A stretch of 64,000 bases of DNA from Eledone cirrhosa (lineage: Eukaryota), in contig OZ024742.1 of NCBI GenBank assembly GCA_964016885.1, positions 151,404,001 through 151,468,000 of the forward strand, in the 5' to 3' direction. The position numbers and the translations under genes were made by a program. Below are positions 5,776 to 51,015 of the stretch, in pieces (the stretch's first letter is position 1; each line of letters opens with the position of its first letter). The notes beneath the pieces are model-generated. The model did no database searches and was not told the DNA's origin. It saw only the letters and a list, made by a program, of their open reading frames with translations.

Positions 5776-5973
5776 GAAAAGGTTTAACCCCGACGGCAGA
5801 GCTCAAGCCGTTTCGACGGCTATTTCTGGACTCTAAGTCTAGAAATAGCCGTCGAAACGGCTTGAGCTCTGCCGTCGGGGTTAAACTTTTTCCTATTACC
5901 CACTCTACTACCCTAAGTATTGAGTACTCTGGTGCGTTATGGTCCATCTGGTTCTTTACCACACCTCCTTCAT
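5776..5973 (+). mobile_element. Fold-back mini-element family A in (TA)n, with HHR 3' half (other copies ~16240-16430, 34043-34205)
   Basis: Near-perfect palindrome 5776-5892 containing GAAA-CGGC-loop-GCCG-TC; shared tail ttacccactctactaccctaagtat..gagtactctggtg. Confidence 0.75.
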
Positions 5974-5987
5974 TATATATATATATA

Positions 5988-6552
5988 TAAGTATGTATAC
6001 GTACATACATATATGTATACAGACGTACAGTAGTATGTATATATATTCATACATGGACATATATATATATATGTACGTATGGATTTACCGAACATTTATT
6101 ATAATGCTCAGTTTGTTTGTAAACAAAAAAAAACATCCCGAATTAAGCCGTAAGTGTTTAGCAACCATCGTTGCCCTTTTGTTCAACACTGACAAAGGAA
6201 CAATGTACTAGTTTCAAGCTTATTAGCTATCGTCAGCACTGTATACCTTTCTTCCAGATGATTGAACGCCTGAAAGTATATACTTTCCTTATGCATATTA
6301 ACGGCTGAGCAGCCTAATTTGCATATCGAGTGAGTTAATCGGCCGGGCGCACCGAAAACGATAAATGGAAAAAATGAAACGAAATGTTCGGTAAATCCAT
6401 ACGTACATATATATATGTGCATGTATGTATATATATATACATACTACTGTACGTCTGTATACATATATGTATGTATGTATACATACTTATATTTAAGTAA
6501 CAGCCGTACTAAGAGTGAGGAATGACATTTGGTTTCATTTTTTTCCATTTAT
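5988..6552 (-). mobile_element. HHR mini-element family B (same family as 44934-45862) with an inverted segment at ~6380-6552
   Basis: Reverse-complement similarity to 45080-45500; flanked by (TA)n. Confidence 0.85.
6200..6242 (-). ncRNA. Type I hammerhead ribozyme
   Basis: ACAGTG CTGACGA t-agct-aata-agct-t GAAA CTAG TA CATTGT. Confidence 0.85.
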
Positions 6553-6577
6553 ATATATATATAAACTATATATATAT

Positions 6578-6872
6578 ATAATAATAAAACACGGACAAAT
6601 GGTTACGCTTATTGGTTGGTGACGCGCGTTTCGCTATTGATCAGCTCAAGGTTGATCTCTATCGATACAGATTGAACCTTGAGCTGATCAATACCGAAAC
6701 GCGCGTCACCAACCAATAAACGTAATGAAGGAGTAACCATTCGTCCTTGTTTTATTTTATTATACTACACACTATCTAGCTCTACACCTCGATACTGACG
6801 TGAACCTAAACATCGAGTGCTCACCCGAGTGAACCTACAGTGACTCCGTGTTACACTCCCTGGATATACTCG
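6578..6872 (+). mobile_element. Fold-back mini-element with HHR 3' half
   Basis: Imperfect hairpin 6578-6763; GAAACGCGCGTC (palindromic stem III plus GUC) at 6696-6707; flanked by (TA)n. Confidence 0.65.
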
Positions 6873-46727: not shown

Positions 46728-46744
46728 TATATATATATATATAT

Positions 46745-49338
46745 ATAAAGAATGAATAATAACAGGTACACATCATAAAAAGGTAATTTATTCTGTGTGC
46801 TTACAAACGTTTCCACGGTGGTTATACAGCCTAGTTATGCTATGCGCAAATTTATAACTATTTGCAAAACTCAATTATCAAATGCTGTGACCACTGTATC
46901 ATCAGAGCAGAATGGTTAAAATGCAAAATGTAAATACCCTTAAGTGAGGTTATTGGGGGAAGATAGAGTAGAAAAGGAAGAGAGAAAAGAAGGGGAGAGG
47001 GAGAGAGAGAGATATATATATGCAGGGGCTGGAGAAATGGGAGAGAGTGGTTTGTAGATATCTTAATCAAAATGTTGTGGTAGGGGTTTTATTATACTGG
47101 TTACTCTTAAAGCGACCACCTTAAGCGATGCGTTGATAGTCAAGGTTGGAATTATTTATTGCCACAGAGGGCTGGTTCATAGATGTGGAGAAGGAGGGAG
47201 GTGGACCTAGGGCGATGGAGAGAGAGAGAGAGAGATGGGAATGGAGAGAGAGAGAGGGACAGATAGAGAGGGGACAGACGAAAGCTATGGGATGGGTGTA
47301 CATTGAGTTCATACTAGTAGGCTACAAATTGCACTAAGTTTCCATTTATAGTGATAAGCAGGGTATTGTCTTGTAGTACGGGGGAAGAGAAGGTGGTTAG
47401 CTAGAAAGCAATGTTATAGTTACGGGTTCAAATGTTAAGTTATTTTATAGTGAGATAACTTAGCCTTCAGTCTGTGGTTGCAGTATAATGATCGTTCGAT
47501 TCTATCATTTAGTAATTTATTTTTGGATTTTAAGATGTAAACGAGTTCAAGGTTACATAACCTACAGTACTTCAATCCACTCCGATATGCACTAGTGCTG
47601 GAAAGTATATCACATTTCAAGGTGAATTGTTGGTTGCGTTCACGGAATTGCCAGGTCTTGTTGGCGAGCGTGGTCACAAAACGGTGATTAGGATGTTTAA
47701 TTGAGAATCGATGACGATACCAGCGAGATTTAAAGGAGGTAGTGGTAGACCCGATGTAATACCATTTCTGGTCGTTCGATTCAACAGTGGATTGGTAAAC
47801 AATGTTGAACTTTAGGCATTTATTGTTCAATGGACATCTTTCAGGTAGGTGGCAGTTACAGTTTTTGTTGTGGGTAACGGGTATACCATGGATAGGTTGG
47901 GATAGCAGTACATGTGGGTTGTGTAATACCCGTCTCCCATTTAGTGGTTGGGAGGCCGATGTTACGTTATGCTCATCTGTTATTAAAATATTTTGTTTTG
48001 TAGTGTTGTTTAATTGCTTTAAGTTAAGTTTTTTATGTATGCTTCAAGGTTTGGTGCCGTGGAGTATGATAGTTTAATAGTTTTAGAGTTCAGAATTTTA
48101 CTGTATTTATGGGAACTAGGGAAATGGTTGTTGATTAACTTAAAGAATGAAAGAGAGTTTTGTACTAATCAAAGCATTAAAAATAGGATTATACCAGATA
48201 TACTTTCTGCAACGTGATTTATTTGGTGATGATTTTCTATTATTAGTATGTCTGGTGGTACTGCGTGTGTGCGCTTGTATTTCAGTACCCCGGTTACGTA
48301 TTCTTTGATTTCGTGTAGAGCTTTATGTGTTATGGAGATTCTTATCAATGTATTCTATTGTATCCCGGTGGTCGGCATTCCTTAATGCATTATTATAGTA
48401 TTCAGCATGTTCACTGAAAATCTCAGAGTCAGACGATAGGCGAGAGATTCTAAGAGAAATACTACGGGGAACCGATTTGATCATGGAAAGTGGGTGGTTT
48501 GAGTTAAAATTGATATAGGTAAGGTTCTCATTTATCTTGTGGAAGGGTCGTATCAGTCCGGTATTTAAATTAAGAGTTACGTCTAGAAAATTTACTACTT
48601 TAAGATTGTATTCGTACGTTATTTTTAGACCCAGTTCACTAAAATATTTTCTAATGTTTTTCCGTTGCCTTTCAAGATTTTGGTTATTTAAGTTATTAAC
48701 TAATAAGAGCCCACCATCTCTATATATTCCCCTCTGTAAATTACTAAATTTACCATGTAGTATGTGGGCTATGTAAATTCCCTTAAGATCGGTGACCTCC
48801 GCTGAGTCGTTGGAGCCCATGGTAATGTCGAAGTTTGTGGGTATGTCCTTACGTTCCCAGTAACAGTTATCAAACTTGATAATAGTTTTTCTAGCCTAAA
48901 GAATAATATTAATTTCGTCCTCCGTTAGGTCGGAATTGACTTTAGCAAACGATAGGGCCTTACGTAAAGTGCCGGGTGTGATTGAAGAGTAGTATTCGTC
49001 TATGTCAAATTGTATAAACTTAGATTTATTCTTGTTCTTAACGTTATTAAACCACAGCATTTGATAATTGAGTTTTGCAAATAGTTATAAATTAGCACAT
49101 AGCATAACTAGGCTGTATAACCACCGTGGAAACATTTGTAAGCACACAGAATAAATTACCTTTTTATGATGGCTACCTGTTATTATTCATTCTTTATCTA
49201 CACTCCGGAATACAGAAGGATCAGGAACTGAGTTTCTTCAACTATTCTTACATAACTCGTTGAGTAACCTCTCACTGTGCGTCAACTCTATCCAGTGTAG
49301 TAATTAACCATTACTGCATCCAGGATAATCCTATACCT
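46745..49338 (-). mobile_element. Penelope-like element with an inverted partial pseudo-LTR
   Basis: RT (QFDIDEYYSSI, MGSNDSAEV, YRDGG, NFLDVTL) at 48323-49050; GIY-YIG ORF 47435..47830 (IVYQ...YIGST...FKSRW); inverted repeats 46745-46889 / 49053-49197. Confidence 0.92.
46798..46909 (-). ncRNA. Type I HHR with an ~85-nt stem II domain
   Basis: TGCT CTGATGA tacagtggt...accaccgtg GAAA CGTTTG TA AGCA. Confidence 0.75.
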
Positions 49339-49410
49339 ATATATATATATATATATATATATATATATATATATATATATATATATATATATATATATAT
49401 ATATATATAT

Positions 49411-51015
49411 ATTGTTATACTTTGGGAGGGTCATGTTGCCAATAAGAAACACACGCACCAGTTGTTTCACTTCAATTTATTATAATAAATTTATAAATTT
49501 AGGAATTTATAAATTTCCGGTTGGTTGGTTGGTTCCACAACCAGATGGTTGTTTATATATTGTCAAAGTTCTTTCGTCACACATTCTGTGACCTCTTCAG
49601 TGATTGGGGATTCTTTTCTTTGTTTTTTGTGCCTCTCTTTTGTTCTGTCCTACGCCATCTTGTTTTTGTGTGTGTGTTCTGTGCTTAGTTTGCGCATGTG
49701 TTACATGCGGGTGTCTGTGTGTGTTTATATTCGTTTATTTATTTGTTTATTTACATGTTACTGGTTGGTTGTTTGTTCTATGTGCGTGTGCGTTTTCATT
49801 TTGTCCTTAATTGTAAGTTGTGATGTTGCTGTTCCACTCATGTTTTCTATTTAATTTTGGTTGTAATTCATTTATGTTTATTGCCTCTGTGATTTGTCTA
49901 AACGTTGCGTCTTTTCTGTGTGTTGATTCTATTTTTATTTCTATGTTCTCTAATTTACCCTTATGTTTTATTTTAGCATGTTGGTAGAGTACAGATGATT
50001 CTTTACTATCTTGAAGGTCTCGTCAGTGTTCATTTATCCGTTCCCGTATACTAGGAGCTGTCTCACCTATGTACACTATATTTTTATCTCTACATTGTCC
50101 TTCAGTACATCTTATGCTATATACTACATTTCTAGTTTTACAGTTAATATGGGGGCTTAATTTACAGATTATACATTTCTTATCTATACAGGGAGGTCTT
50201 TGAAAAGGGTATGTCTTGCTAATAAGTGTTTTTATGGAGGTACCTGGTCTTTCTACTATCTTAATATTGGGTTTATGTTTATCTAGGGCCCTTCTAAATT
50301 TGTCAGCTAATTCACCTCTAGGGGTTATATCGATGAACATTACACTCTGATATTTATTGCTATCATACCATGAGTTTATTCTATTAGCCTTATTCCTAGT
50401 TCTTTCTATTCTATTCCATAATTTGCTCCTATGCAAGGGGCAGGTCCCATTTGTGTCATTATTTACCATTTTTTCCCATTTGGTTCTGGCTCCTCTATAC
50501 ACTCTGATTTTATCTCTCTGATTGTAACCAGAGAACTTCATACGGTGGATGAAGTGTTGTATGTGTCTCTCTAGTTCTTCGGGGCTGCACATGCGGGACA
50601 CGTTTCTCATCACCCGTACCAAATCCGCAATCAGTATGTTGATTTTGGTATGGTCCGAAATAGCTGAGTATCGGTGGATCAGATATTTGGAAGTCATGGG
50701 TTTGGCATAATGGGAATGGGGGATTTGTTTTTTCTTATTAATGGTATCTAACCAGAGCTCTGTGTCTAGTACAGGTAATCGGTCACAGAATGTGTGACGA
50801 AAGAACTTTGACAATATATAAACAACCATCTGGTTGTGGAACCAACCAACCGGAAATTTATAAATTCCTAAATTTATAAATTTATTATAATAAATTGAAG
50901 TGAAAGCAACTGGTGATTGTGTTTCTTATTGGCAACACGATCCTCCCAAAGTATAACAATATCGGTTTCAACACGTTTTCAGATAAAGAATCTTGCTAAA
51001 CAAATTCAGAAACGA
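49411..51015 (-). mobile_element. Penelope-like element with an inverted partial pseudo-LTR
   Basis: ORF 50023..50829 (LPVLD, CIDKKCIIC, VVYSIRC...YIGET...ERINEH); inverted repeats ~49411-49593 / 50781-50961. Confidence 0.9.
49563..49603 (-). ncRNA. Minimal type I HHR in the PLE pseudo-LTR
   Basis: TCA CTGAAGA g-gtcac-agaatgt-gtgac GAAA GAAC TT TGA. Confidence 0.7.

Follow-up and report, generated by a model that had tools for sequence, protein, structure and literature searches.

Five inverted 5′ arms of Penelope-like elements (PLEs) run past the 3′ end of the copies to which they are joined in a 64,000-nucleotide (nt) stretch of Eledone cirrhosa DNA, here called the window (assembly GCA_964016885.1, contig OZ024742.1, positions 151,404,001–151,468,000). 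This geometry supports a route, which we consider marginally probable, in which both strands of the target prime reverse transcription and the two complementary DNA (cDNA) ends are then joined. A first-pass annotation had held that 5′ inversion breakpoints fall repeatedly inside the hammerhead ribozyme of these elements, and had proposed that its stem II hairpin stalls reverse transcriptase (RT) or lets the cDNA fold back and prime itself. The junctions are genuine and belong to an architecture already described; their lean toward the 5′ side of the ribozyme is modest and differs between families. The ribozyme-specific claim is weakly supported, and the signature of two-strand priming is the more useful result.

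Five inverted arms overshoot the forward copies

Each inverted arm and each forward copy has a separate (TA)n-joined 3′ end. Five arms, in two copies of family A (A1 and A2), in element B and in PLEs C and D, run 55–143 nt past the 3′ end of the forward copy. A1 (44934–45869, + strand) opens with an inverted arm at 44934–45081, followed from junction 45081/45082 by two tandem units of ~433 nt with predicted hammerheads at 45233 and 45624; counting from C3 of the ribozyme core, the arm ends at C3+154. A2 (5985–6545, −) has a forward copy running 6381→5985 with a predicted full hammerhead (C3 6236, cut 6206) and an arm at 6382–6545 that ends at C3+139. Element B (45957–46727, +) comprises an arm at 45957–46287 and a forward copy at 46288–46727 with a hammerhead at 46464. 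PLE C (46745–49340, −) is a 5′-truncated RT-to-GIY-YIG copy (49052→46745, predicted hammerhead 46905) whose arm, 49053–49340, carries 143 extra nt, and PLE D (49410–51017, −) is a 5′-truncated copy (50780→49410) with a minimal predicted hammerhead at 49600 (3-bp stem I) and an arm, 50781–51017, with 55 extra nt.

In B the extension first covers 27 nt that lie beyond the forward 3′ end and continues through 42 nt of the sequence that opens the forward copy (69 nt total); the arms of A1 and A2 likewise extend into the next unit. The forward start lies upstream of the arm's outer end, by 25 nt in A1, 19–25 nt in A2 and 42 nt in B (overlap windows 44934–45106, 6369–6545 and 45957–46330, respectively). 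Such an overlap of 19–42 nt occurs in all three tandem-unit inversions, with a chance probability of ~0.001 as judged post hoc. A1 and A2 look like independent events, each arm sharing diagnostic bases with its own forward copy; on these bases we rejected the idea that both are copies of one inverted master.

Since a cDNA cannot copy sequence that it does not contain, A1, A2, B, C and D are not products of simple fold-back. The earlier proposal of fold-back self-priming at the hammerhead therefore fails at 46287, 49053 and 50781, where the arms carry the extensions described above. Centred palindromes in the window (5834, 6664, 17007 and 52631) possibly fit either fold-back or two cDNAs that both reached the template end.

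The joints themselves carry microhomology or a palindrome in A2 (6 nt, at junction 6381/6382), in family F (3 nt and a 12-nt palindrome), in the second copy of family E (E2; a 12-nt palindrome) and at 52555. Forward copies start at a palindrome in family A and at the foot of a 13-bp hairpin in B (46290–46318). Of 19 cDNA ends scored for local hairpin stability in a 30-nt window, 2 rank in the top 5%, and a general rule placing such ends at hairpin feet is unsupported.

A candidate two-strand priming route

The route that we favour would begin with a PLE enzyme cutting both strands of a (TA)n target. Element RNA would then be reverse-transcribed from each cut end, and the two cDNA ends would be joined head to head, often through short palindromes. 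The short arm would be copied from an upstream repeat of the transcript and its end would therefore be confined to the interval between the priming site and the RNA 5′ end. The hammerhead would fill much of this interval and contribute stems able to pair with themselves; ends would accumulate mildly at its 5′ side, to an extent that depends on the family, and the cleavage site would play no role. Arm ends likely lean to the 5′ edge of the ribozyme because the upstream repeat begins near there and the stems offer pairing. The RNA 5′ end is placed near the ribozyme because the Penelope start site precedes a 75-nt intron by 46 nt (passages of PMC2377424), and this intron runs up to helix I (passages of PMC4209133). 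The arm extensions and the three tandem-unit overlaps support this route.

Several observations weigh against it. The joints of A1 and B show no clear microhomology (0–1 nt). Tracts of (TA)n delimit the extensions of C and D, which match no other copy, although we infer that they derive from an upstream repeat; their forward copies start 1.2–2.1 kb from the arm, the overlap signature is absent, and a pair of RNA molecules would account for these two elements just as well. Inside the ribozyme, a residual excess of ends persists in the window (P 0.02–0.09 under realistic nulls, and 0.01–0.03 once stem I is counted in), and the joints from public runs considered below are 15 of a total of 61, with 5963–6087 skipped.

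Palindromic junctions could also arise from self-priming that uses an antisense template, an idea put forward for rotifer Penelope elements, or from later hairpin repair at the DNA level. The palindromes at several junctions speak for this, and a model is published (in passages of PMC3846280); it predicts neither a pair of distinct (TA)n-joined ends at priming sites that recur (for example 5896, family E) nor the 19–42 nt overlaps of A1, A2 and B, and we regard it as highly improbable.

Arm extension combined with start-to-priming-site overlap is a countable genomic signature that separates two-strand priming from fold-back, and is applicable to any assembled PLE-rich genome and to the existing in vitro system. 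A further, speculative and rather unlikely idea is that PLEs retain the hammerhead more for its service as a landmark in two-strand priming than for cutting, with the 5′ half of the ribozyme setting the end of the second cDNA and its pairing sealing the joint. If true, this landmark role would explain the persistence of weakly cleaving ribozymes in PLEs. How PLE inverted ends form and what weak hammerheads do are called open in passages of PMC8557442, PMC11167929 and PMC4209133.

Arm ends relative to the ribozyme

Our count covers the eight inversions of the window whose families carry a ribozyme core and leaves out four coreless events (the three family E copies, E1–E3, and element H) and inverted pairs in which no hammerhead was found (51115, 34320 and the 41639 element). 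The stretch from C3 to the cleavage site holds four of the eight inner arm ends: C3+2 (46287), +16 (49053), +7 (50781) and +44 (7545). The first three had been placed correctly in the first-pass annotation. The B arm begins inside CUGAUGA, at the equivalent of C3+2 of hammerhead 46464 (arms identical at 262 of 262 positions), and self-alignment puts 49053 within stem II of hammerhead 46905(−) and 50781 at the base that opens stem II in hammerhead 49600(−). A breakpoint reported at ~7970 stands in part: a hairpin at 7861–7968, centred on a 12-nt stem-III palindrome, does end at GATC within CUGAU|GAUC, but this structure is a double switch inside the element and not a 5′ inversion. The element concerned, a complex family F insertion (7498–8506, +; second copy with a core at 8362), has its own 48-nt inverted arm at 7498–7545, which ends in the 3′ strand of stem II with 3 nt of microhomology at the joint; its internal inversion, 7903–7968, switches at the 12-nt palindrome.

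The remaining inversions lie outside the core. The description of breakpoints as falling repeatedly in the ribozyme holds for the four ends above, but the underlying list was selective and omitted both family A inversions. Two exceptions had been named. One, near 16838, is an inversion at C3−68 as described, in a family G palindrome (16742–17176, unstranded) with its centre at 17007, cores at 16933(−) and 17080(+), and a left copy that is longer than the right at both ends. The other, near 52555, is hardly an exception: its palindrome (52471–52707, +; left extent probably marked by the (TA)n flank) is centred at 52631, at the stem I foot and only ~7 nt 5′ of C3 (52640), and the core is intact in the inverted arm.

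All window tests are post hoc, using the same data that suggested the pattern. Over the whole element, 0.88 of eight arm ends would be expected in the core (P 0.005); capping arms at 350 nt raises this to 1.3 (P 0.025), starting the RNA 120 or 50 nt before C3 to 1.3–1.6 (P 0.02–0.045) and permuting arm lengths to 1.9 (P 0.09). With 8 nt of stem I added on each side of the core, five of eight arm ends are included (P 0.002–0.033). The range C3−13 to C3+16, picked after viewing the data, holds four of eight against 0.9 expected. No other (long-copy) end of a joint falls in the core (0 of 8). Arm ends thus lean toward the 5′ half of the ribozyme, and the bias is modest. We rejected the cleavage site as the junction point, the arm ends of B, C and D lying ~20–90 nt upstream of the cut.

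The lean could in principle reflect no real association, as arms are short (24–331 nt), the ribozyme sits 20–330 nt from the priming site and the elements are themselves recognized by the ribozyme motif. The permuted test, the two omitted counter-examples, the family A read joints without an excess and the shared edge of the family E cases (both below) are in keeping with this. Yet every null expected fewer ends than were observed (0.9–2.2 versus 4–5), and non-inverted copies at 44840 and 51911 also start at or in a core-like motif; chance placement is, in our judgement, quite unlikely.

A second alternative makes the folded hammerhead a cleavage-independent stop or turnaround, with RT released after copying stem II and the cDNA end folding back or passing to the joint. 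In its favour are the ends at C3+2, +7, +16 and −7, which make up the four in the post hoc range above, and the cDNA end of PLE D, which forms the stem-II hairpin exactly (5th percentile). Fold-back cannot, however, yield the extended arms, few ends rank high in hairpin stability, and elements without canonical hammerheads also invert (Naiads, in passages of PMC8557442). A stall at the stem II hairpin, as first proposed, would leave ends at the 3′ foot of the hairpin, and the observed ends lie past stem II. Together with the mixed read evidence below, this leaves the stop signal unlikely.

Two high-copy families in public runs

Four public runs were aligned to 5816–6381 of the window (566 nt): a single sample supplied two contig sets, and the other two runs are restriction-site-associated DNA (RAD) read sets. 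The contig sets contain 0.32–0.36 of the sampled words of a PLE stretch. Twelve listed rows without strand and one skip joint were dropped from the joint counts, and all joint figures refer to the joints listed.

Family A yielded seven opposite-strand joints and hence 14 ends. The core holds one of them, where depth predicts 2.6; four lie within C3−13 to C3+16 (2.3 expected, P 0.19), and two at C3−12 and C3−13 (0.6 expected, P 0.12). Positions are imprecise for four of these joints, one end of each falling at an A-run with additional bases in the reference. No depth step is seen at the family A ribozyme in these runs. One high-copy family therefore does not show the ribozyme bias. The missing core enrichment supports two-strand priming, and it tells against a stop signal, for which the two ends at C3−12 and C3−13 can be cited. 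The interval C3−13 to −6, with one of eight window arm ends and these two of 14 read ends, has weak support.

Family E is very abundant in the public runs and carries only a hammerhead-like 3′ half. Its depth left of 5835 is 0.9–1.4% of that in the next bin. All seven joints have one end at 5836–5848 and the other at 5871–5905, the latter positions being biased downstream where the reference differs from most copies (5881–5889); a common (TA)n-joined end lies at 5896. Loose ends before 5836 in family E contigs show no dominant consensus (agreement 0.46). These data indicate a shared 5′ edge near 5836, 14–18 nt before GAAA, and the events at 5776, 16237 and 34043 are therefore not independent ribozyme hits. 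The first-pass annotation had read 5776, 6578 and 34043 as breakpoints that removed the CUGANGA half; a GAAAC..GUC half without CUGANGA, preceded by an inverted piece, is indeed present at each, but 5776 and 34043 share the family edge.

The first family E copy (E1; 5772–5990, +) has an inverted arm at 5772–5832 and a centre at 5834, then a forward copy with GAAA at 5854 and a putative cut after 5876. E2 (16237–16445, +) contains two inversions, of which one sits at its 12-nt palindrome and the other immediately 3′ of the putative cut site. E3 (34041–34215, +) has a 24-nt inverted arm beginning 4 nt before the putative cut site and a forward copy beginning 19–20 nt before GAAA. Element H (6578–6873, +; 3′ extent probably up to the (TA)n at 6873) is a palindrome centred at ~6664 with a GAAACGCGCGTC half at 6696. 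CUGANGA is absent from all three family E window copies and from H.

A 5-bp stem III can be drawn after GAAA in family E, and the consensus fold of four sequences prefers a hairpin that closes over GAAA. From this modelling, GAAA would fit a plain hairpin loop as well as a hammerhead core, which, with the lack of a core, counts against a stop signal in this family. A type II or III hammerhead topology was considered and dropped, no CUGANGA being seen downstream. Six centre-deletion variants at 5831–5834 (contig counts of 45 in run X2 and 59 in run X3) suggest that centred palindromes form repeatedly at the family E edge, in ~1% of copies, a recurrence that would suit a stop signal.

Searches further afield gave no matches to the family E motif in metagenome contigs and none to the family A motif in viral contigs. 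A generic hammerhead pattern hit 120 metagenome loci; two survived a loose filter on the stems, and a relevant inverted arm was present in none.

Hammerheads and other elements of the window

The window is AT-rich animal DNA (37.7% G+C) with many (TA)n tracts and retroelement fragments. Several of the fragments are, judging by their sequence, PLEs, in line with the first-pass annotation; the identification draws on RT and GIY-YIG matches, hammerheads and inverted 5′-truncated copies. Pfam matches to GIY-YIG lie at 47438–48043 in PLE C (E 5e-5) and at 18757–19143, with a further one in PLE D (50026–50925) below the cut-off (E 0.002). RT matches lie at 19147–20130 and, below the cut-off, at 29274–29750; the RT fragment of PLE C (48326–48895) has no Pfam match. 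The PLE at 18757–20130 combines RVT_1 with GIY-YIG, the order of RT and then C-terminal GIY-YIG that defines endonuclease-bearing (EN+) PLEs, and the inverted 5′-truncated copy and the tail on one arm, also EN+ PLE traits, are present in window elements. The linker before GIY-YIG in PLE C (47435–48043, −) reads as CxCX5C, resembling the Hydra clade in passages of PMC8557442, and that of PLE D (50023–50780, −) as a CX4CxxC linker of apparent Neptune/Nematis type.

A descriptor scan predicts complete hammerheads at 6236(−), 16933(−), 27739(−), 29980, 33981(−), 45233, 45624, 46464, 46905(−) and 51446(−), and weaker ones at 49600(−), 8362 and 52640. Families A, B, C and G have a type I layout (CUGANGA, stem II, GAAA, stem III, UH, stem I). 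The PLE C hammerhead passes the descriptor, its stem II region spanning 85 nt; that of PLE D has core, stem II and GAAA and, with its short stem I, does not pass. The sole Rfam hammerhead match among the 150 of 190 rows listed is HH9 at 46446–46517 (E 3e-6, below the gathering score). At 6236, 16933, 45233, 5078, 8362 and 52640, stem II is flanked on each side by an unpaired T in place of the usual G10.1–C11.1 closing pair.

Short hammerhead-bearing elements without an evident inverted arm occur at 27739(−), 33981(−), 42450(+) and 5078(+); that at 42450 has GAAA changed to AAAA and lies within a 294-nt tandem unit. At 51317–51911 (−), a tandem unit of ~522 nt contains hammerhead 51446, and its upstream partial copy begins inside GAAA/stem III without inversion. 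A repeat with a variant core (CAGAAGA, stem, GAAA) is found at 44840–44931 and 51996–52088; the 44840 copy begins ~6 nt upstream of the variant core, directly after (TA)n. A (TA)n-flanked inverted pair at 51082–51302 (unstranded) has a 50-nt spacer, and no hammerhead was found in it.

A truncated PLE at 40625–42126 (−) has two tiny inverted pieces at its 5′ end, one of 30 nt internal to the open reading frame (ORF) and one of 19 nt from the 3′ end, and both inversions sit away from any detected hammerhead. From ORF translations, we take other mobile elements (244–1332, 60249–62550, 30375–33509 and 52931–54724) to be two related copies (80% alike) of an element without long terminal repeats (non-LTR), a long interspersed nuclear element (LINE) with endonuclease and RT, and a broken DNA-transposase-like ORF.

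Comparison with known systems

Inverted 5′-truncated copies, tails and (TA)n targets of PLEs, including Naiads, are described in passages of Craig et al. (2021, PMC8557442), and palindromes at inverted Penelope junctions, with a self-priming model, in passages of Arkhipova et al. (2013, PMC3846280). Measured against these parts of the two papers, the window elements resemble EN+ PLE insertions in their partial tandems, the inverted 5′-truncated copy at the 5′ end, the tail on one arm, the (TA)n targets, the pseudo-LTR hammerhead and the palindromes at inverted junctions. They differ in tail length (55–143 nt here, 30–40 nt described there), and five events misfit the simple fold-back by which PMC3846280 explains palindromes. 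The passages concerned do not map junctions against the hammerhead. Opposite-strand hammerhead pairs 100–700 bp apart are reported in part of PMC4209133. The architecture is thus already known, and the mechanistic reading is modestly new.

Family A, with at least two non-coding tandem units (~433 nt) and one type I hammerhead in each (45233 and 45624), resembles animal non-LTR retrozymes; in element B the unit wrap is visible with one full ribozyme only. Such retrozymes are proposed as non-autonomous PLE derivatives in a preprint (bioRxiv 10.64898/2026.07.22.740005), which in the part covered does not treat inverted arms.

The closest biochemical parallel is purified PLE protein, Poseidon PAc. 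In passages of Frangieh et al. (2024, PMC11167929), this protein cuts the two strands of the target, extends each of them and initiates at two internal positions of the RNA, which set the tail; hammerhead cleavage is not required. Each of these properties has its likeness in two-strand priming as set out here: both strands cut and extended, two internal starts setting the tail and cleavage dispensable. Those passages do not tie both-strand extension to inverted genomic copies, a link that we infer. Among titles and abstract openings, with subscription journals largely missing, none maps PLE inversion junctions against the hammerhead and none applies twin priming to PLEs.

In L1 twin priming, reportedly described by Ostertag and Kazazian in 2001, the second target strand primes internally, the forward copy starts near the second priming site and microhomology is short. 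A1, A2 and B likewise start their forward copies close to the second priming site, a likeness not seen in C and D; joint microhomology is absent in A1 and B and present in A2 and F. In L1, the inverted piece is upstream sequence, whereas here the template is repeated and the arm duplicates the 3′ part of the forward copy.

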